Below, piece after piece: positions 24,202-64,000 of a stretch of DNA of 64,000 nucleotides. The DNA lies in NCBI RefSeq assembly GCF_028641065.1, contig NC_073379.1, positions 36,084,001 through 36,148,000 on the forward strand, in the 5' to 3' direction. The translations under genes were made by a program, and so were the position numbers. Each line of letters starts with the position of its first letter. Within the stretch, counting starts at the first letter, position 1. This DNA comes from Leucoraja erinacea. Lineage: Eukaryota. The notes beneath the pieces were generated by a model. That model saw nothing but the letters and a program-made list of their open reading frames with translations. It did not search any database and was not told the DNA's origin.

Positions 24202-26873
24202 GGGTGATAGGGTGGTCAAATTGGGAGTGAGATGAAGAATTAAAGTGACAAGCAAGTGGTAGCTCAGCATCACACTTATGGATTGAATGGAGCTATTGAG
24301 AAAAGCAGTCACCCAGCATTTAGCTTCTCCGATACAGAAGAGATCATATTGTGAGCACTTTCACTTGCAAGAAGTGGATTGCTGCTTCACCTTGGAGCCT
24401 TTGGGTTCCTAGTTGGAGGGATGGGATAATGGTGTAAGGGCAACTGTCGCATCGCCAACAGATCCTTGAGAAAGCAACTACTGACTCTTTCTTATATCTC
24501 TTTCCAGGGTTCGTGCCATTGATGCAGAGTGAGTGTCTTGTGGATCCACCATTCTCTTTTACCTTAGATTTCCAGCATGACTGCAGGATTTTGTATCACA
24601 GTTGCTTTCTTCAGAAATGTAAATGGCTCAGAGCAGAAGGTGCAATTTAAGCTGACTTTTTAAAAATAAAAGCACAAAATGCTGGATACACTCAGGAGGT
24701 CAGACAGCATCTATGGTAAATGATGCAGAGTTAACATTTTGGGTTAATAACTTTTCATTAGAACTCAATTTCCAGTGATTTGCACAAGATCCCTTAATAA
24801 AAAAGTTTTCTGAGGACTCATCTTTCGTAATCATTTAACCAGCACATTGCTGCTAGCATGATTTTTAAAAACAAAACAAATCTTTAAATTATAGAATAAT
24901 AACACACGATTCCATGGATTTGCAAAGGTTGAATTTGCTTTTAACCATGGGTCATTTTTTAATTTTAGTTTGTAATTACACTGTGAATAGCCAAATATGA
25001 CAAACTCTAAAATTACGTCCCTCAGGGAAATTTTTGACACTGGCCCTAATTCAGCATTCAGTTGACCCTTTCAAAGGACGCATGTATACTTCAGAGGAGA
25101 GGAAATACCGGCAAAAAAACCTAATGCTTTTAATTAAGAAAGTCGGCTCTAAGTTTCCCACCCAAAATGACATCTGTCCATCTAAGTTGCCGCCTGACCT
25201 ACTGAATTCCTCCAACAGTTTGTTTTAAGCAAGTGTTATTTTTGTGCTCAGGCAGGCATACCAGCATTTCCGAACAATGACAAAGATTTTCTTATATCTG
25301 AGAACTGAACTTGCCCTCAATTAGTTACCATTCATCCAGGAAATAAAAGAGATCTTTATTTTTAAAAAGTCAGAAAAAGATCTTGAGCTATCTTCTTCTC
25401 AATCATAGTTCATGTTAGGAGGATTACTGCTGTTAATTCATGTGGCACAACCAGATGACATGATTAAAGCTATTGACACTTCATAATGGGCAAGAACAAA
25501 CTAATTGCAACATACATCAGCATTTTGGGCTGAAATAAACTGACAACGCAAGGAAAGTTAGAACAAGGAGCTCGCTCCCACTTGTCTACGAAATAATCTA
25601 TTCTTGGAAGCAAAATAACCTTGAAATTAGGTCATTGCAACACTGTTTTGTTTTCAGCACTGCATCAGGGAAATCAATTTTCTGAATTTGAATGCTGGTT
25701 GTCAGGTTAAGTCACACAACTCCATAAATTCTACCAGGCACATGTGGTCACTAATCATGAATGAGTGTGTGAGATTTGTTTGTTCTTGGTGCATGCTAAG
25801 TTCCATCATAGTGTGAAGCTCTTGCCATGAGGAATGAGGTCACCTTATACCAAAGTGTCCTCATAAACTGCCAACCAATGTCCGTCTGTGCTTGTTTCTT
25901 TGACAACCCCGTTACTTCTGAGATTTAAAATGGTGAGTTCAAGAGAACCTCTCTTGACTAGAAAAAACATTTTTGACCTCAGAGTAAAACAAATTGAAGG
26001 TTTAATTGGCACGATTACCTATTAACTTAATAAAATCGCTTTCCTGTTATTTGGCCTAACACTATTAAATAAAAGGATTAATTTTATTCTCTAGTCTCAT
26101 GCTACATCAAGAACCTGGTAAGAGATACAGGATAGAATTAGCAAAGTTATCTCGTAATGCATTAGGTTCCAGTGAGAGCTCTGCCCATTATTTCGTTCTT
26201 TCATTCCATTTTCCTGGCAGCCTATTCACTTGCTCATATTGGTTGAATGTCTAACAAAGAATGGTAAATACACAAATGTAAATCATTTAATATTACGTAC
26301 AGATCACAATTATCTAATTTACCATATTTTGGGATTTAGACTTCATCGTGTTGCAGGGAAATTGAAACCTAGATCTAGTCTCCCAGCTTCTTTTTACTTG
26401 GGCTGATTAAGATATATTTGTAATTATTGCCAAAGCCAGGGCAGTTACTTTCATAAGAACATGAAGAGAATACAAAATAAGAGCAGGTTTATGCCATTCA
26501 GCCCCTTCAGTAGCCACGCCATTCTGTGAGACCATGGCTGATCTGATCATTACCCAGTTCGACAATATTTGCATATCGTCCAAATATTTCTCAGTCACAG
26601 TTTTGTTTATACCTTGGTGAGAGGAAAGATTTATCCCCATCTCAGTCTTAAAAGATCAATGCCTTACTCCTGAGACAAGACATCTTATTTGTAGCTACCC
26701 CCTCTCTGTGTAACTCAATCTCCCTCTTCTCCCTACCCATCACCAGGGGGAAGCAACCTTGCAGTATACACCAAATCAGTGTAGCACTGCTGTGAATTCC
26801 TCTGAGAAAAACACGCTGAAAGTCTGAGATGACATTTGCTGTGCTGATATGTTCTTTTTATTGATTAATACAG

Positions 26874-27472
26874 AATCCCCTCCACCTGCAGATGAGCCTG
26901 GAAAATTCTCACCCCACCAATGCAGACATACTTATTTCCCTCCTGACAATGAATAGCTGGTATGACGTCAACTTGGTTCTGTGCCAGGAGTGGAACGTGT
27001 CCGATTTCCTCAGCCTTTTGTACAACAATTCCAAGATTCACCTCGGGACCGTTTTCAACATCACAGAAGACAGCGATGACAATGATTTTCTGAGTTACCT
27101 ACAAGGGTACTTGGCAGCGGCCAAGGCGGTCTCATTATCCATCATCACCTTTGGCTGTAACATTGACCATTTCCAAAGGATTTTCCAGTTGGCAGCAAAC
27201 TATGGATTGACCCTGGCGGAACTCCATTGGATTCTTGGTGACGCTCAAAATGTGGAGGAGCTGAGGACTGAGGGGTTGCCCATGGGTCTGCTGGCCCATG
27301 GTAAAATGACTGAGCCTGCTTTCCACAACTATGTGCAGGATGCATTGGAACTGATAGCCAGAGCAGTAACCACTGCAACCTACGTCAGGCCAGACCTGGC
27401 ACTCATTCCAAGTACAACAAACTGCATGCATTGGGAAGAAATTAATATAACATCGGGCCAGTTTCTTTCAAG
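26874..27472 (+). CDS. grin3a: GluN3A (NMDA receptor subunit 3A) internal exon, amino-terminal domain (equivalent to mammalian exon 2)
   Basis: Acceptor TTCTTTTTATTGATTAATACAG| and donor AG|GTAAGA; reads NPLHLQMSLEN...WILGDAQNVEELRTEGLPMGL..HGK...YVQDALELIARAV..AT...LALIPSTTNCM...TSGQFLS(R), matching recalled GluN3A; 599 nt, ends in phase 2. Confidence 0.93.
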
Positions 27473-27586
27473 GTAAGACTTGCTGCTTTTAAGAGTTTAA
27501 TTGTTAATGGCATTAATCTTTCATAAAGTCATCACCAAAGGTTAAGTGAAATTTTATGAAAAGCAGAAAATTGGAAATACTATAAA

Positions 27587-44381: not shown

Positions 44382-45470
<1,089 letters not shown>

Positions 45471-45495
45471 TAAGAGAACTATTGTTTTTTCATTG

Positions 45496-46793: not shown

Positions 46794-47037
46794 GTTTGAT
46801 CATCTGTCCTAATGTGATTCAGTTTCATTTTCTTTATTAATGTTGCTATATTCCAAAATATAACTAGGATTTTACTTCGGAGTCACGTGAGTGACTACGT
46901 GAAGAACCCACCCAGTGCGCAGGCGCGGCATTACGCCAGCAGCGCAACAGCGGCGGCAGCTGGAGCCAGGCTCTCCAGCTGCAGGTAAAAGACAAGACCT
47001 CAGGTAAGTGAGTCTTTTGTATTACAGAGTCGCTAGC

Positions 47038-48267
47038 ATGGCTACCCGCAAGCGACAAAGCAAACGGACTGCCTGCCCAACTCCCCCCGAGGAAGGGTCA
47101 ACATCTGGGCGGCAGCCACCGGCGGCAGAGGAGCATTTTCAGCGCTCCCGTACACCCGACCCCGAGCCGCTCCCTGTGCTGCCGACTTCAACACCTCGCA
47201 CAGGGAGGAAATCCACCCGTAAAACGGACCGGCCGGTGGTCTCTGACTCGTCGGAGGAACGGGAACATTCTCCACCGGCTAAACGGGGAGACAGCCGCTT
47301 AAGCTGCATGAGGCAGCTCCTCGAACAAATGTTCGAGCAGGAGATGCAGGCAAGGCATCTCCAGGGAGGACGGGCTGAGGCCTCCTCCAAACCGTCACCT
47401 TACCCCTCTGCTCCCTCCTTATTTGAGGTCAGCAAGGGAGGCCAGGACTGGGCTGGCTTATCGCAGGGGCAGGCGGACGACTGCACAAGTATGCCAGGGG
47501 AGCAGGAGGAAGAAGAGCTGCTGGGTGTGGTCAACCGGTATGCGGCGCCCCCGAAGGCCGGGAGAATGCTGACCCCAAAAATGGCGGCCAGCATAAACCG
47601 GCTATCCAACAAGCCTCTCCAGGAAAAAGTCATCCAGGAGGCTCTCGAGACATACACGGCACCCGAGAACTGTGAGGCGCTGCGCGTTAAGACCGTCAAT
47701 GGCCAGATATGGAGCCAGCTAGGCCAACATATTAGGAGCCAAGAGCTGAAAATGCAACGCATCCTGAAGCTCCATACCGCTGCCATCACCGCCTTTGCTC
47801 GGTCCGCAGAGCACACGGACCTCACTACACCTCAACAGGATGTCCTAGCTCTGATGTGTAACACCCACTTTGAGATGAACAACTTAAGGCGGGAAAACAT
47901 CAGGCCTGCCCTCAACCCCAAATATGCAGGGCTTTGCAAAGCTCCTGCGCCAGAGAAGGAGGCGCTGCTATTTGGGGCTGACCTGGGAAAAAGGCTCAAA
48001 GAACTTGAAGAGGTGGCCAAACCAGTAGGCCTCATGAGGGCAGGACCAGCGCCGAGCAGGGCGAAGACACCCAGTTGGCAGCACCCCTCGGCATCCACCA
48101 GCAGATACCGGACTGGTGAAAGCCTGGCTACCGCTCCTCACTACCCCCATAGCTCTTTTTTAGAGAGGGGCCCAGAGCGGAGCCGTGGGAAGATACGCCG
48201 CCCCGTGACAGCACCAACAAAAACGCCCGCGAGCCAAACCCACCAACGAAGACGCTCCCAAAAATGA
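47038..48267 (+). CDS. gag: DIRS ORF1, Gag-like protein (409 aa)
   Basis: First ATG of the element; long open frame with PENCEAL..KTVN.QIW and LFGADL motifs; assignment mainly positional. Confidence 0.75.
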   Translation: MATRKRQSKRTACPTPPEEGSTSGRQPPAAEEHFQRSRTPDPEPLPVLPTSTPRTGRKSTRKTDRPVVSDSSEEREHSPPAKRGDSRLSCMRQLLEQMFEQEMQARHLQGGRAEASSKPSPYPSAPSLFEVSKGGQDWAGLSQGQADDCTSMPGEQEEEELLGVVNRYAAPPKAGRMLTPKMAASINRLSNKPLQEKVIQEALETYTAPENCEALRVKTVNGQIWSQLGQHIRSQELKMQRILKLHTAAITAFARSAEHTDLTTPQQDVLALMCNTHFEMNNLRRENIRPALNPKYAGLCKAPAPEKEALLFGADLGKRLKELEEVAKPVGLMRAGPAPSRAKTPSWQHPSASTSRYRTGESLATAPHYPHSSFLERGPERSRGKIRRPVTAPTKTPASQTHQRRRSQK

Positions 48268-50198
48268 ACATGGAGGTAGGTGGGTCTGGTTCCTGTCAAC
48301 ATACAATAACCAAGGGTGTTTTACTAACAGGAGGGCGTTTACGATTATTTAAACATGTTTGGTGTACTATCACTAACAACCAATACATACTCAACAGTAT
48401 TAGTGGATACAAAATTGAATTTAAAACAGGCATAATACCGCCGGTTCAGCATATACCCCAAAGGGTATTCCTTCCCACTAAACTAGAGAAGGAGAAAGGA
48501 CAGGCTGAACTAGATAGGCTCATGTCTAAAGGAGTCATTGAAAGGACCAGACATGAGCCATTGGAATTTGTATCAAATATATTTATTAAAACCAAAAAAG
48601 ATGGTGGATGTCGCATCATCATTGACCTAACATCACTAAATCAATCTGTTGAGTATCAACATTTCAAAATGGAGACATTTGTCACTGCCAGACAACTGAT
48701 CTCCAAGGGATACTTCATGGCAAGCATAGACATTAAAGATGCTTACTATTTAGTACCCATTCACAAGGATCATTTTAGATACCTGAAATTTATCTGGATG
48801 GGGCAACTATGGCAATATAGAGCACTGCCCAATGGGTTAACAACAGCTCCCAGATTATTTACCAAAATTCTTAAAGTAGCCATGAAAATATTGAGAGAAC
48901 AAAAATACCTAGTCATGGCTTATCTGGACGATATTCTCATAATGGGGAGAACCAAGGAACTAGCTGTCGCAGCAGTTTCAGCTACTAAACAACTCCTTGA
49001 AACGTTGGGATTTGTTCTACATCCAGATAAATCGAAATTGAAGCCGTCAACTAATATGGACTATCTAGGCTTCACCATCGATTCTACCCACATGACTGTT
49101 ACTCTGCCAAGGGATAAAAAGGTTGCATTAGCGCAAGCATGCAACAATTTAATCGCAAATACACAACCAAGGATCCGGCATGTTGCCAGAGTCATTGGGA
49201 GTATTGTAGCAGCATTTCCAGCTGCACAATATGGACCCTTGCATTACCAAAATTTACAAAGAGCAAGGACACATGCATTACACCAAAATAGGGGGCATTA
49301 TGACCGAACAATGTATTTACCCACTGAGGCCATATCAGAACTTCAGTGGTGGTCAGAAAATATTTGGCACAGTTACAGTCCCATTGCCATCACTAATCCT
49401 AACATAGTCATCACGACTGATGCCAGTGCTTTAGGCTGGGGAGCTACTAACTCTATATCCAGCACAGGTGGCAGATGGACTAATCTCGAGACATCGCTAC
49501 TACACTCACTAGGCATAAATTATTTGGAAATGCTGGCCGCCTTTTATGGGCTAAAAGCATATTCATCCAATATGCAGCACGTGCATGTTAGGTTAATGAT
49601 TGACAACACAACGGTGGTGGCCTACATCAAGCACATGGGTGGCATAAAATCAGTATCATGCGACAAATTGGCTAATATAATCTGGCAATGGTGTGTCGAG
49701 AGACATATTTGGCTATCAGCTGCCTATCTACCAGGTAAGCTAAACACAGTGGCAGACACCAGGTCACGAAAATTCAATGATAACATCGAATGGATGTTAC
49801 ATCCAAAAATATTTGCAAAAATTACTAAGCAATATGGAACACCAGATATAGATTTGTTCGCGTCTAGATTGAATCACCAGTTACCCATGTATGTGGCTTG
49901 GGAACCAGACCCAGAGGCAGCAGCGGTAGATGCCTTCACGCTGGATTGGGGAAATTTCTTCTTCTATGCTTTCCCTCCCTTCTGCCTCATCAGCCGGGTA
50001 CTCCAGAAAATACGGTCAGACTCTGCTTCAGGTATTTTGGTCGTACCCGACTGGCCTACCCAACCATGGTTCCCAGTCTTTCACGACATGGTGGTAGAGT
50101 CACCTATGGTCTTTAACAGTCATCCACAGCTATTGACTCACCCAGTATCCGGCATAAGTCATCCATGCCATAAAAAAATTAAAACTCCTGGTTTGTAG
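48264..50198 (+). CDS. pol: DIRS ORF2: reverse transcriptase, RNase H, methyltransferase-like domain
   Basis: RIIIDL, SIDIKDAY, LPNGL..APRLFTK, YLDD, YLG; TDAS..GWG, LEM, IDNTT, NTVAD; DLFAS...YAFPPF...PDWPTQPWF. Confidence 0.95.
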   Translation: MNMEVGGSGSCQHTITKGVLLTGGRLRLFKHVWCTITNNQYILNSISGYKIEFKTGIIPPVQHIPQRVFLPTKLEKEKGQAELDRLMSKGVIERTRHEPLEFVSNIFIKTKKDGGCRIIIDLTSLNQSVEYQHFKMETFVTARQLISKGYFMASIDIKDAYYLVPIHKDHFRYLKFIWMGQLWQYRALPNGLTTAPRLFTKILKVAMKILREQKYLVMAYLDDILIMGRTKELAVAAVSATKQLLETLGFVLHPDKSKLKPSTNMDYLGFTIDSTHMTVTLPRDKKVALAQACNNLIANTQPRIRHVARVIGSIVAAFPAAQYGPLHYQNLQRARTHALHQNRGHYDRTMYLPTEAISELQWWSENIWHSYSPIAITNPNIVITTDASALGWGATNSISSTGGRWTNLETSLLHSLGINYLEMLAAFYGLKAYSSNMQHVHVRLMIDNTTVVAYIKHMGGIKSVSCDKLANIIWQWCVERHIWLSAAYLPGKLNTVADTRSRKFNDNIEWMLHPKIFAKITKQYGTPDIDLFASRLNHQLPMYVAWEPDPEAAAVDAFTLDWGNFFFYAFPPFCLISRVLQKIRSDSASGILVVPDWPTQPWFPVFHDMVVESPMVFNSHPQLLTHPVSGISHPCHKKIKTPGL

Positions 50199-51176
50199 GT
50201 TTTAACCAGGCCTTACCAGGAACTGGGTTTATCAGAAAGAACAATCACCACCATGTCGGCATCCCTGCGAGACTCTACCAAGAAGCAGTACCTGACATAC
50301 ATCAAGAAATGGGAGCAGTACTGCTTGGATGCAGGGACGTCGTATAAGAAAGCCACAATCACGGACGTGTTGGAGTTCCTGGCCCATTTACACCATGACC
50401 AGAAGATGAGCTACAGTGCCGTCAACGCAGCACGAAGTGCCCTGTCCGCTTATCTTATGCCAACAGGACACCATAGCATCGGGTCCCACCCGCTAGTCAT
50501 AAAACTCCTCAAGGGGATTTACAATATCAAACCCCCTACACCCAGGTATACCCATGTATGGGATATAAGTGTCGTGCTATCACACCTCAGAGGATGGCCA
50601 CCGGTGGGATCCCTCAGTCTAGAGCAATCCACGCTCAAGACCCTCATGCTAATGGCGCTCGTCTCTGCACAAAGGGTCCAGTCACTACATCAACTACGAC
50701 TGGACAACATGGTAACTACCCCAGACTGCATCACATTTACTATGCCGGGGTTAGTTAAACAAACCAGGCCAGGTATGTCCAACTCGCCATTAATCTTCCG
50801 GGCCTACCCTCCAGAACCTAGGCTCTGTGTAGTGACCCATTTATACAACTATGTAGACACAACCCATACACTTAGAGGGAGTGAAAAAGCCTTATGGGTC
50901 AGCCACAAGAAGCCTTTTGGACGGGTAACCAGCCAAACTATATCCAGGTGGTTAAAACAGGTCCTGAAAGCTGCAGGGATTAACACTGATGTTTTTAAAT
51001 CCCATTCTATCAGGGCAGCATCCACATCAGCTGCGGAACGGATGGATGTTCCCATCGACCACATCCTAAGCACAGCAGGATGGTCAAGGGAATCAACGTT
51101 CCGGATATTTTATCATAAACCGCTGATGCAGAAAGACTTGTTTGCAGAGAAAATTTTAGAAACTGCAAACTTATAA
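50199..51176 (+). CDS. DIRS ORF3: tyrosine recombinase (first ATG 50253; conserved frame begins 50199)
   Basis: Catalytic set SAQRV (R), VKQ (K), HSIR (HxxR), AGW, FRIFY (Y); N-terminal GLS...ST.KQY..W segment. Confidence 0.93.
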   Translation, partial: VLTRPYQELGLSERTITTMSASLRDSTKKQYLTYIKKWEQYCLDAGTSYKKATITDVLEFLAHLHHDQKMSYSAVNAARSALSAYLMPTGHHSIGSHPLVIKLLKGIYNIKPPTPRYTHVWDISVVLSHLRGWPPVGSLSLEQSTLKTLMLMALVSAQRVQSLHQLRLDNMVTTPDCITFTMPGLVKQTRPGMSNSPLIFRAYPPEPRLCVVTHLYNYVDTTHTLRGSEKALWVSHKKPFGRVTSQTISRWLKQVLKAAGINTDVFKSHSIRAASTSAAERMDVPIDHILSTAGWSRESTFRIFYHKPLMQKDLFAEKILETANL

Positions 51177-51211
51177 TTTTAAGCCCAAGGGAGCTATTTT
51201 TGTTATTGTTT

Positions 51212-51217
51212 AATAAA
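51212..51217 (+). promoter_or_regulatory. Candidate polyadenylation signal of DIRS subgenomic RNAs
   Basis: AATAAA 36 nt after the YR stop, followed by T/GT-rich sequence. Confidence 0.4.
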
Positions 51218-51336
51218 CATTTTTGTTTTCAAAAAACAAACAGATTCGTTGGTCTTTAGATACCACTTCCTCCCTCGATAACTTCGGCAGCGAGTGATAT
51301 AGCTGTTACACGGTTTGAAATCACAGATCTTTGAAG

Positions 51337-51449
51337 TCTTCACGTAGTCACTCACGTGACTCCGAAGTAAAATAGAGAGATTAAATGAGTACTTACCAGT
51401 ACGAAGTTTGATCTGTATTTTATGAGGAGTTACGATGAGGGATTACGTG
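51337..51449. repeat. Internal complementary region (ICR) of DIRS element
   Basis: 51337-51373 is the exact reverse complement of 46869-46905; 51371-51449 is the exact reverse complement of 51596-51674. Confidence 0.96.
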
Positions 51450-53779
51450 CCCTCCGCTCCCACCCTCAGTATATGGATCAAACTCGAGCTGATGTCTCTT
51501 TAATCTTTACTATCTTTACTTCATATATTGTGTCTACCTGTGATTCCACACCGCTGCTTGGAAGTATGCCGCGCCTGCGCACTGGGTGGGTTCTTCACGT
51601 AATCCCTCATCGTAACTCCTCATAAAATACAGATCAAACTTCGTACTGGTAAGTACTCATTTAATCTCTCTATTAATTGCTGTTGAAGTTGTTGAACTTA
51701 AGATGTCTGCGGTCTAAATGTGTTCCCAAGCTCTGCGTTATTTGAATAAGATGGGAACTTTTATTAAAATGCCAGTCAAGATTCATCCATTCATTCGTTT
51801 AGCTTGGGCAACCTTATAGCTTCACTATGTTACAAATTTAGAGACAAGAAGGGTCACCACATGACATGATTTCATCACACAAAATGAATCAGAAATTGCC
51901 GCTCACATAAAATAAGTACCACATGCAGATCTCCTGTGTGATATACACAAAATGCTGGAGTAACTCAGTGGGGCCGGCAGCATCTCTGGAGAGAAGGAAT
52001 GGGTGATGTTTCGGATTGCGACTCTTCTTCAGACCTGTATCTTTCTCCTGTGTGAAATGGCTCAACACATGGAAATGATGTGCTCCATTAAAAATAATTC
52101 TTCTTTAGCATTTAATTTTCATTTACAAATAGTGGAAACATTTGTAATTTTAAAATATTGTGGAGATGCATTCCCTGCATGCAATACCGACATTTCCGGA
52201 CTATCACTAATTACCCCTGTATTGAGTAGGCTACTTCACTATGTGGTTAAGAGTCAAGCCTTTTGCCCTGTATCTGGAATCATACATGAGGCGACTCAAA
52301 TGTGGATCTCAAGGATACAATTCAACCAGGTGGGACTTCTACAATATTTCATGGCCAATGTAACTGATATGAGCTGACTTACACAGTCACTGTAGCGGGA
52401 TTTCATGTCATGCTTCCATATTTATAGCCCATGACTCGATTATTACTGATGATAGAACCTCTGTGTAGCCATACACTTAAGTCCACTTTATGAACATCAC
52501 ACCATCGAATTCTACTCCCAGCTCTCTGTATTTTTTACTTTATTTCAGTGTTAGCAGTGAAATATTTACTGGAAATGTGCATGGGGGTTGTGAGGGGTGT
52601 GGGTGGGTAGGTTATCTGAAGCCCAAGGAAATGAAAGTCCGGTTTAATTTAACAGTTAAAGTGACAGAGCACCCAATGTTATTCAAAGTAAACAAAGTCC
52701 TGGAATTCAAAGGAATTGATATTGTGAGAGACCCACACAACATGATATTGAAGTATAAAAGGCAGTACATCTGATAGAGAAAGGTCTAAAAACAGATAAG
52801 CAAAGGCACGCTGTCCATTTGTCCCACACAAAGCACAGGATGGTCTTGTTCAGCAAAGTTGTGCAGAAGCTGTTGGGAAGAAATGACACTGTACTATTGG
52901 GACAAGGAGCTAGATGCAGAATGAGACAATTAATGAGGACATTATTTCATCAAAACAAAACTCATTGCAATTATGGAAGTATGTGCACTGGTAGATAGAC
53001 AAATTCAGTCAACGATGTTGAACACCATATTTGACAGTCAAAATAGTTTATAAATTAACATATTGATAATAAAATGCATTCAAGCAGTTTTGAAAAAAGC
53101 TAGTCTCTTGCCTAGGAATCATGTGAAAGTCCATGGCTTTGAGACTGAAACATGCTGGTGAGATCAGTGCAAACATGTGGTCGTCGCATCACTCACTACA
53201 GCCTTGTCAGTTGTGTTTTGTCAAGTGCTTCATTTGGCAAAAGAAAGATCCGAAAGACAGTCTGCTGAACAAAGGCTGAGAAAGCAACACATGCAGATTC
53301 AAAGATCACACAGGCAATGTTGATCTGCGATTGTGCACTACCACGGCAGCAAGCAGTAACTGAAGCAAACAGCTTTTCGAGAAGTGTTGATTAATAACTA
53401 TTTCATTGAAAGATGAATTAATACTTCCACTATTTAGCACCAGCAAACTGAAACCTACACCAGGGTAAATGGAGAGAATAATACAACAAAACAGAAAGCA
53501 AGCAGACCAACCTATGGAAATTACCCAATTTGAATGTGAAGGACTTAACGCTAAATTGGCTTGTTTTGAGCACTAAAGATCAGGAGTCAGGCGTCTATAG
53601 TCATTGATGTTTAATTGTTCTATATACCAACTATAGAACAATGACATTTTTACTTGTAGCAGCACAGCAGGCCTGTATAACCAATACACCTAGAATCCAA
53701 GATAATAATGTAAACAAAGTTCAATACATTAATAACCCCATTAACCCCTAATGCAAAAAATGTATTTCTGAAGTAATAT

Positions 53780-60135: not shown

Positions 60136-63100
60136 ATTTTACTTCGGAGTCACGTGAGTGACTACGTGAAGAAGGGCTGTCCGTCTGCGTGTGCGTCATT
60201 ACGTCTGAACGCAACGCGCGACGGACTGGAGAGGCACTGCGTCCTCCCAGGCCGTTAGGATGGGCAGGTAAGGAAAGTTGAATCACTTACCTGCGTTCTT
60301 TCGGGCTTGAAACTTTTTGTAGTTTCAGGGCCCAGATGTCGAGGATACGGTCGGCGGGGAAGTCGGCTACCGAAGACTGCAGCATTTTCCAGTAGCGGGC
60401 GACGGTGTTTCCCGACACAGCACCGGGAACTGAACCGGCAGGAGACTTGTTGCAGGAGGAGAGTTCCGTTGGTGGTCCTGCAGTACGGGGAAATCCACCC
60501 GCAAGTCAAACAACCCGTTGACTCAGAAGAGTCCGGGGAGGGAAAGGGATACCCTCCCTCAACGGAGAGCGTCTGAGGACGACTCTCCCACATAGGAGCA
60601 ACTTTTTGGAGAAGTTGCTCCAACAATGACCTGCTCTAAGGAGAGAGCTGTGTCAGCCCGGGGCCTACAGCAGCAGGCAGTACCGGGAGCCTCGCATAAT
60701 GGGGCAACCCAATGTCTTCCCCATTGGAGGGGGAAGTACATATGGAAGAAACCACTCTGAATCAGAGTACAAAAGCAGGGGGGGGGGACCTTCCCAGGGA
60801 CAAGCAGAAGAAAGGAAGTAAGTAAGTAACTTTTACTTATATAGCACTGTTTAAGTTAACTTGCACCAAAGAGCTTTACATAAAATAAATAATAAGCACA
60901 AAAGAAAAGAAATACTTCTGCAATCATCCAGGTTCCACTGGGTGCTTCCCTGGATAGAGATCTAGAAAATGTCTCCTGCTCTGAGGAGAGGAGCATTCAC
61001 GGTCAGTTTCAGTCTGACCCAAAGCAAGAATCTCATTTAGGCCCGCTGGAGGGGCCATGTCAGTGCAGGTATCCTCAGGGGCCTGTGGCAGCACCTGTTT
61101 TCAGGGCTACCTACAAATCTCACTCTCAATGGAGAGGAGTGTGAGTGAGATTACAATACTATACAATACCATTCATTTGTCATTTGAACCTCACATAACG
61201 TTCGAACAAAATTTGGTTTCGAGATCAGTAGGTAACTGATCTCGAATTAAAGTATGAACATACTGAAGCAGTTGGCAGAATATCCGCACAAATGCCGGCA
61301 AGGGAACAGCGCTATCAGGGTGACTTTGGAGAAACCAGCCGCCGAATCCTCTCTTCAGGTAAGACCAGAAGAAGAAAGCAAAAACTGTCGGACCAATCAA
61401 GGTATCAACGACAAGCAAACTTCATCAGTAGGCGACAACACACCCCACACCTCCATAGGGGGTAAGCAGTTCACTGAAGCCGGTGGTAGCTTGAAAGCTG
61501 GGCACGGAAATATGATCAGTCGTCTTTCAAGGCAGACTCAGAATTATGGCCAGAATTGTCCGACAAGGCAGGCTCAGTATGATAAGGTTTTCAGACCAAG
61601 ACCCAAGCAGAGGTCAGGAGAAACATGGAATACACACTTCCTACCAGTCCAACTCCCAATCAAGGAGAGAAAAGGAAACCGCATCAGGGGCCTTTGGGCT
61701 TACCACAAGACCACCAGTAACCATGGAGGTAGGTGGGTCTGGGTTTACTGAAACAAGGGATTGTGGACCAGTTACATGTTGGTAATTTTACTCTTGTGTT
61801 CAAAATGACAATAACATGAATTTCAGATCTGGTTTTAAAAAACAGATAACAACATGTGATTATTTTTTACTGCAAAACATACATAGGTTCCAAGCAGACT
61901 TGGAACTCGGACCGGAATTGTCTTCAAGGCAGGCCCAGTATTTTGGGCAGGATTGCCTTCCAGGACAGGTGACAGATGGAGGATGTCACTTCATCCAGGT
62001 TCAACTCATTTGTGCAGTACAGACTTTTAGAAACAGCAATTTTTGTTATGGTCTAACAACTGTTTTATAGGAGCTTCCTATAAAATAGTCACATGGCATG
62101 CATCGACCTCAAAGATGCATACTATTCGGTGTCTATTCATTAAGAACATGAGATATTTGAAGTTTAACTGGATGGCATGGCTGCCAAATGGGTTGATATC
62201 AGCTCCTAGACTATTGACTAAACTACGGAAACCAATTCTGGGACTACAAAGGTCTCAAAACCGCATAGTAATGGCATATTTGGAGGACATTTTCATTTGA
62301 GTCACCAAGAATTGGCAGAAGCATCAGTCAAAGCAAACCAAAACCCTGTTTGAAAGAATTGGTTACCTCATCCATCCAGTTAAATCAAAATTGACACCTA
62401 CAAGGGTAATTGATTACCTAGAATTTACTATCAAAAACAGTAAATATGTTGGTGACTTTGCCTAGGGGCAAACGACAATATTAATTAAGCCTGCAATGAC
62501 CTGATAGTCAAATTCTAGCCATCTATCAGGCAAACAGCGAGTGTAATTGGCAAATAGTAGCTGCATTCCCAGCAGTACGGGCCTTTGCATTACCAGAACT
62601 TACAGCAAGCAAAGGAACGAACACTCAGATTACATGCAGGCCGAATTGGCAAACTATGGATTGCCAGCAGAGGCCATTGTTGAATAACTATGGTGGATAA
62701 CGAATGGGAGACAGCTCAGGGAAATTTTGCTCGAAAGCCATCGAGGGTTCTTCAGACCTATGCAAGCGGCTAAGGATGGGGAGACACCAACACAGTCTAA
62801 AGCTGTGGGGGCAGATGGAATGAGCAGGAGTCTGTAATTCCCCAACACATGGAATCAATTACCCAGAATTGTTGGGGGCACAATATGGACTTGAGGTTCT
62901 CTGTAGCGATATGCAACCGGTGCTTGTTCAAATTCAGATTGATAACTCCACTGCGTTGGCATATATCCATTAACAAGGGTGGTGTAAAATCTGTATCTTA
63001 CGACAGATTGTCGAACCTCATTTGGCACTGGTGTATCGAGAGGAATATTTGGGAAATCTACGAGGTAGCTATAACACGGTGACAGATGCTAGATCACGAA

Positions 63101-64000
63101 TGTTTAATAACAACACAGAATGGATGTTGAATCAGACAGTATTTAACAAAATAACTACACGATTTGGCATACCAGATTGTATTGTATTGTATTGTATTTT
63201 AATGACCACACAGCCAGGCTGGTGGAATTTGGGTTGTCAGCAGCGATACAATAATAAAGAACACACAAGATGTTGATCTGTTTGCATCTAGACTAACCAT
63301 TAGTTACTCAGATGTGTCCTGCGAGCTGGATTCAGGAGCAAGGCAGTGGATGCTTTCTCCCTCAATTGGGGAGGAATGTTTATGTATGCTTTCCGCCAAT
63401 TTGTCTCACAAACCGATGCTTGACAAAAATCAAGCAAGACTAAGCCACAGGCATATTGGTAGTGCCAGAATGGCCTACTCAAGCCTGGTCCCCAAAAATG
63501 TTGGGAATTATAGTCCAGCCAATAATGGCTGTACCCAAGAGCAGGGACCTCCTAGTGAACCCAGTTACAAGGAGCAATCATCCACTACATGAACGTATAA
63601 CTTGTTGGTCTGCAGATTCTGAGGAGGCCATTTCAAGGCATAGGACTGTCCGAACAAATACAACACAGTTCGGATAACGGGTGTCTTGGAGTTCCTATCA
63701 ACTGTACTATAACTATAAACTAAGTTATAGTGCATCTATAGTGCCAGAGGCGCACTCTCCTCAAATCTGATGCCGGATGCAGGGCACAGTTCGATAGGAA
63801 CGCACCCTCTTTACAACAAAATTCATGAAGGGAATTAACAATTTAAGAACTCCAAGTCCAAGGTAAACTGACACATGGGATGTGAGCGTGGTACAAACCC
63901 TACTTTGACAGTGGGGACCGCCTATAACTAACCCTGAAGGTGGTATGCTGACAAAGAGTCCAGACACTGCAAAAGCTACGGTTGGACTACATGACCACCA
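60136..64000 (+). mobile_element. Second, decayed DIRS-type element (different subfamily), runs off window end
   Basis: First 38 bp identical to 46869-46906; remnants MEVGGSG, RYLKF.W..LPNGLISAPRLLTK..MAYLED, WCIERNIW, VPEWPTQAW and YR fragments with many stops, frameshifts and nested tails. Confidence 0.9.

Follow-up and report, generated by a model that had tools for sequence, protein, structure and literature searches.

How does a retrotransposon that carries three genes obtain all of its proteins from one RNA? The question is raised by a DIRS1-like element in the genome of Leucoraja erinacea (RefSeq assembly GCF_028641065.1), found in a stretch of 64,000 nucleotides of contig NC_073379.1 (positions 36,084,001 to 36,148,000, forward strand) that is called the window here. 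The element, at 46869-51674, is a young DIRS1-like retrotransposon in which a gag-like open reading frame (ORF) is followed by pol, with its reverse transcriptase (RT), and by a tyrosine recombinase. Three ORFs, inverted termini, an internal complementary region (ICR) and a terminal ATT characterize DIRS1-like elements (PMC3266345, PMC9210276, PMC7192593; here and below, cited articles are represented by the available portions of their text), and the window element shares them with DIRS-1 of Dictyostelium and with Xenopus and fish families. In these portions, the published accounts describe overlapping ORFs and no expression route. The strings 'splic' and 'intron' have 0 occurrences in PMC3266345 and PMC9210276, and the splicing mentioned in the available text of PMC7192593 is that of a reporter intron. 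The literature searched, whose coverage leaves out the key reviews, has no account of DIRS1-like elements being expressed by splicing or frameshifting.

An earlier note on the window had proposed a scheme of four splice sites, two donors (D1, D2) and two acceptors (A1, A2). Splicing from D1 in the leader to A1 near the end of gag would remove gag, so that an ATG at 48270 starts Pol, and an additional splice from D2 to A2 would let the same start head the recombinase. All four motifs are present: CAG/GTAAGT of D1 at 47003/47004, the AG of A1 at 48162-48163, ATG GAG/GTAGGT of D2 at 48270-48281, and the AG of A2 at 50197-50198, which is also part of a TAG directly ahead of the recombinase frame. 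They do not form one single scheme.

From the motifs, frames, conservation and covariation that are directly visible we infer one splice and one frameshift. Unspliced RNA would serve as template and would yield Gag, together with Gag-Pol by -1 frameshifting at U_UUU_UUA (48156-48162). A singly spliced RNA, joined from 48275 to 50199, would have lost pol as an intron of phase 0, and the same frameshift on this RNA would give a Gag-transframe-recombinase beside Gag. The ATG at 48270 would be an addition peculiar to this lineage, and it may open another entry, through D1-A1 splicing or reinitiation. Taken alone, the D2-A2 splice is highly probable and the -1 frameshift is probable; the combination of both in a two-RNA system is put forward with moderate confidence.

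That pol is removed as an intron in phase 0 is the part of the four-site proposal that comparison supports well, though junction reads do not. Within the family, D1 and A2 are conserved in 29 of 30 copies, and the AG of A1 and the GT of D2 in all 30. These figures say little because the copies are 96-100% identical, and conservation among such near-identical copies was rejected as evidence. Elsewhere in the genome, 19 further elements with both termini have D2 and A2 at homologous places wherever the region is present and alignable, including cases where the pol residue ahead of A2 has changed from Cys to Ser.

More distant relatives were collected by a metagenome contig scan that kept 80 of 122 loci, with 30-52% recombinase identity. 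Donors and acceptors were counted after 13 near-duplicate loci had been put aside; of the 80, 27 include the start of pol, 23 of which were counted, and acceptors were counted in 43. A phase-0 donor (score of at least 6.5, within 136 nt before the RT start) occurs in 23/23 of these loci, compared with 27/242 control windows inside pol. In the same interval, phase 1 donors are found in eight loci and a phase 2 donor in one. The conserved donor sits just after the gag stop, within a poorly conserved linker.

In the open stretch ahead of the recombinase, the top-scoring acceptor is in phase 0 in 35 of the 42 loci that have any acceptor (43 examined). Its position varies, lying at 0 (10 loci), at -75 to -81 (6 loci) or at -198 to -216 (21 loci), and the open length of the recombinase frame tracks it at 0-33, 27-60 and 67-110 codons, respectively. 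A pyrimidine-rich acceptor supplies the TAG at which the recombinase frame opens in 13/43 loci; among other stops, 32/1285 belong to such an acceptor. An AG at the A2 position is present in some distant relatives only. The nine elements of this A2 group have a Cys after the FPPF motif, because of which the usual upstream AG is gone, and their recombinase frame is closed 5-33 codons upstream; one element of the group has another AG at -201. On a tree that left out L148 and the six loci with acceptors at none of the three positions, acceptor position changes eight times over five groups, and the families of the window's genome nest within the A2 group (branch support 87/90). Thus the GT and AG ends of D2-A2 are conserved, in phase, beyond near copies.

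D2 is a tandem donor (48276-48285), with a second GT in phase 1 located 4 nt downstream that scores higher in L082, L083, L103 and L104. Use of this GT would yield a spliced RNA without an in-frame recombinase and might tune the recombinase level.

A reading without any splicing would take the motifs as by-products of coding and would express the recombinase by a frameshift from pol or from Met 19. Many database recombinases are indeed called from a Met near position 18-20, and neither junction reads nor processed copies speak for an intron. For Ngaro elements, PMC13003380 quotes Poulter and Butler (2015) as having proposed a frameshift from pol to the recombinase, and the likeness extends to a recombinase ORF in the -1 frame whose overlap is short (PMC13003380). 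In the DIRS clade of the window, unlike in Ngaro, a stop that doubles as the acceptor closes the overlap, which blocks the Ngaro-type route. In the window element this stop (50196-50198) leaves a two-codon overlap without a heptamer. Recombinase codons 4-18, which follow the pol stop and precede the first Met, are constrained as much as codons 20-59, with pN 0.06-0.33 versus pS 0.17-1.0 for codons 4-18 in eight pairs. With a phase-0 donor in every counted locus, in a linker that is otherwise poorly conserved, and with acceptor and open frame covarying, an account without splicing appears very unlikely.

How Pol is reached is a separate matter. In the families of the window's genome, A1 lies in a gag sequence TCT TTT TTA GAG that contains the heptamer T_TTT_TTA in gag phase, and the pol frame, which is -1 to gag, is open from there onward, as it is in the window element. 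Among the distant loci, 17 of 23 have a gag-frame X_XXY_YYZ heptamer within the open pol frame, where 0.23 would be expected per window. Ten of the 17 (TTTTTTAT, TTTTTTGT, AAAAAAC, AAATTTA) cannot be acceptors since they lack an AG. U_UUU_UUA is the shift site of HIV, and A_AAA_AAC and U_UUA_AAC are also known shift sites (PMC5009743). A1 is therefore better read as a putative -1 frameshift heptamer.

Removal of gag by D1-A1 splicing, so that the ATG at 48270 starts Pol, would agree with several features of the genome's families. D1 is a consensus donor in most of them, most also show a purine at -3 and a G at +4 around the ATG before D2, and both D1 and this ATG occur in this genome's clade and are not seen in the nearest relatives outside it. 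In this Kozak context, the ATG gives 4410 exact matches, versus 5018 plus 200 for looser donor patterns. The earlier observation that leader and A1-D2 exon contain no ATG before 48264/48270 holds for the window's family but not for others: the second copy in the window has ATGs at 60260 and 61625, and in an abundant sister family the exon includes an ATG in gag frame, 74 nt ahead of that of pol. Nor is Met-Glu a general start. L070, a family of the same genome, retains D1, the heptamer and a consensus D2 with ACA in place of ATG, and an L066-type family has CCT at this position. The scheme also leaves a second AG 11 nt upstream of A1, inside the A1 tract, and the heptamer is conserved in relatives that lack the AG. 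RNA reads cross D1 unspliced, and a D1-A1 joint is absent among the joints listed for the 7 raw-read runs and 1 contig run described below. A D1-A1 route to Pol is thus unlikely.

D1 has a nearer acceptor of its own. In the genome's families it recurs together with an acceptor just before the gag ATG, at a distance of 22-24 nt in 3/10 representatives and 50-67 nt in 7/10; in the window element an acceptor-like site lies 24 nt after D1, directly ahead of the gag ATG. In the RNA reads, a 24-nt leader skip could lie beyond the indels listed. The most likely role of D1 is as part of a short intron in the leader, or else as a binding site for U1. Outside the genome, D1 and A1 are not kept together as D2 and A2 are: D1 is missing in the four closest distant leaders examined (absent in L082, L083 and L103, weak in L088), the AG is missing at 10/17 heptamers, and leader donors are present in L108 and L137. 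Because the heptamer and D2 are found in distant relatives and D1 is absent from the nearest leaders, the heptamer and D2 are old, and D1 with the ATG is particular to the window's lineage.

D1 is often within a predicted hairpin, paired in several families to a nearby ACTTAC(C) (46990-47020 and homologous leaders), and these folds differ between families. A second consensus donor, CTG/GTAAGT, is found in the right terminus (51646-51654), is mirrored in the ICR and is a possible U1 site. Another donor upstream of D1, at 46984/46985, was rejected, as it is found in 12/30 copies.

The ATG at 48270 could instead be reached by termination and reinitiation, with D2-A2 splicing real and the gag stop lying 2 nt upstream. 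The arrangement stop-NN-ATG-GAG recurs in most families of the genome, and the window's family has a further ATG that overlaps the gag stop (48264). Against this, an ATG in the pol frame ahead of RT is lacking in 14 of the 17 relatives with a heptamer, the gag stop lies about 20 nt earlier in L071 and L067, and the heptamer is left unexplained. Reinitiation is accordingly judged quite unlikely, more so than the D1-A1 route.

Contigs of distant relatives that lack pol are possible examples of the predicted spliced form. In two unrelated cases, L128 and L157/L160, gag is followed after 98 and 92 nt, respectively, by the recombinase start. The transframe segment is in frame with the recombinase, and the breakpoints are at about D2 and A2-type sites. 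Once the -75 to -81 acceptor is subtracted, 11-23 nt remain, which falls within the 2-41 nt that separate the gag stop from the donor in 19 loci that are unspliced. L157/L160 has no AG at the acceptor positions. Two RefSeq models, XP_071502116.1 and XP_046546323.1, likewise lack pol and run from gag through a transframe piece into the recombinase.

Several observations weigh against frameshifting combined with removal of pol. Seven raw-read RNA runs from 3 studies, labelled with the matching species, were searched (5-32% of each was read), together with 1 contig run. Among the joints listed, D2-A2 is absent from 7/7 raw-read runs and from the contig run, so that neither junction predicted by the four-site scheme (47003-48164 and 48275-50199) was seen in the 7 raw-read runs. 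The power of this search is low, with coverage that is shallow or probably antisense and that comes in large part from other families, on both strands. In run X24, one copy type is evenly covered at about 30-70x with the first mate on the plus strand, which is usually antisense; if X24 is sense after all, it is strong evidence against splicing in that tissue. Run X22 has the opposite strand bias at about 5-20x, a depth at which we estimate that splicing would have gone unseen unless roughly a third or more of the RNA was spliced. Five pattern searches found no processed genomic copy, the 16 candidates being 10 point-mutated copies and 6 unrelated sites, and a scan of viral contigs found nothing.

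On the same side, a canonical heptamer is missing in 6/23 relatives and an acceptor at the three positions in 6/43. No stable stem-loop follows the heptamer (z of +0.97 in the window element, -0.2 to +1.0 in six copies, in a test that covers structures other than pseudoknots). The thresholds were set post hoc and the loci are related, so p-values overstate the case, and the pattern is relied on instead. The AG of A2 can be explained as an Arg codon, as the earlier note had rightly cautioned: pol ends in LLVCRF with the AG in an Arg codon in 27/29 other copies aligned, and AGR makes up 66-76% of Arg codons in three pol copies. A pure frameshift model has no need of the common ATG before D2. For the pol-less contigs, RNA or DNA origin is not given and the unspliced parent is not among the loci found, so they are only possible spliced forms; L128 keeps CAG at -75 and is ambiguous, as it could be a genomic deletion. 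The RefSeq models are predictions whose basis is not stated.

Two further signals were seen in the RNA reads. Run X19 has a joint from 46997 to 47433, in 3 reads with 2 starts, whose far end is an AG that follows a pyrimidine tract within gag. This joint would permit a shortened Gag from the ATG at 47491 and was not seen again in a second set of runs. Many read pairs start at 49842 in 4 runs (42 in X24), reflecting either priming bias or an RNA end.

In retroviruses, a downstream gene (env) is reached by splicing out pol. The donor of the window element differs in lying after gag and the shift site, and the spliced RNA would keep gag and swap Pol for recombinase. The heptamer and its phase are those of the retroviral gag-pol -1 frameshift of HIV (PMC5009743); no stimulatory stem-loop was found in the window element. 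In the Arabidopsis Ty1/Copia element EVD, conserved alternative splicing sets protein ratios by way of a Gag-only RNA (PMC5580714). Splicing removes the enzymes in EVD, whereas in the window element it would choose which enzyme is made.

The proposed arrangement would explain how common animal DIRS elements make three proteins from one RNA. It gives exact coordinates for a conserved donor, a movable acceptor and a slippery site, and it predicts that Pol and recombinase are both fused to Gag. If so, current recombinase annotations that begin at the first Met have the wrong N-terminus. For a broader generalization the chances are about even: animal DIRS1-like elements may share a two-switch code. 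Its first switch would be a -1 frameshift where gag ends, leading into a transframe linker; its second would be an optional phase-0 intron, comprising all of pol, by which either Pol or the recombinase becomes the fusion partner of Gag. Migration of the acceptor along the methyltransferase gene would then account for the pol/recombinase overlap that varies across the superfamily, and the window's lineage, with leader donor and Kozak ATG added, may be moving to all-splicing expression.

The features of the window are collected in the table. The range given in the earlier note was 46869..51176; the ICR and right terminus carry the end of the element to 51674. In a Pfam scan, RVT_1 matches pol (E 4e-19) and Phage_integrase matches the recombinase (E 2.7e-8). 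At E 0.01, pol has no RNase H or methyltransferase match, and its similarity to the pol of relatives is full-length. We presume both domains from the motifs DAS, DLFAS and FPPF.

Features of the window element and of the second element (positions are those of the window)
Feature	Position	Strand	Remark
Left terminus / left inverted terminal repeat	46869..46931	+	starts ATT
D1	47001..47009	+	donor-consensus CAG/GTAAGT in leader
Leader intron-like segment	47004..47027	+	GT...TTACAG, 24 nt, probably too short for splicing
gag-like ORF	47038..48267	+	position and similarity to relatives' first ORFs; no Pfam match
Pyrimidine tract and AG within gag	47410..47432	+	endpoint of 3-read joint from 46997, run X19
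pol frame	48153..50198	+	RT by Pfam; 48276-50198 is the predicted optional intron
T_TTT_TTA heptamer, gag phase	48156..48163	+	predicted -1 frameshift site; last base and following G are A1
Transframe segment	48164..48275	+	Gag C-terminus overlapped by open -1 segment, ending ATG GAG
D2	48273..48285	+	phase-0 donor GAG/GTAGGT, second GT 4 nt downstream
A2	50183..50198	+	phase-0 acceptor; its TAG closes recombinase frame upstream
Tyrosine recombinase ORF	50199..51176	+	codons 4-18, ahead of first Met, under purifying selection
ICR	51337..51449	+	
Right inverted repeat and extension	51566..51674	+	ends ATT; donor-like CTG/GTAAGT at 51649
Second element	60136..64000	+	non-coding sister family; same left terminus, D1, D2, A2; no heptamer

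Both the inverted termini and the ICR are present. The terminal ATT (46869 and 51672-51674) is found as a single copy at the empty site, which is represented by the joint 46868>51672 in 3 reads of RNA run X19; in another sample, then, one chromosome or more lacks the insertion. The top 30 matches to the element in the genome have 96-100% identity at full or near-full length, and all three frames are open in 25 of them. Among named proteins, the closest is a skate model. The length of an A-run near 50172 in the window copy differs from that in 27/29 other aligned copies. The terminal 34-mer has 7498 occurrences, up to two per element, spread over many families.

The second element has counterparts of the four sites at 60267, 61594, 61728 and 63615. 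It had been described as a decayed copy; rather, it is a member of a family (L032-L061) that has no long ORF in the copies located and was amplified at 91-97% identity. These ORF-less elements were probably mobilised in trans. Both DIRS elements probably sit in an intron of a receptor gene, in sense orientation: ionotropic glutamate receptor exons, presumably of a GluN3-like gene, are located upstream on the same strand at 44382-45473 and 26865-27476. Several RT and endonuclease fragments, which we take to be of LINE type, lie within 3442-37934.

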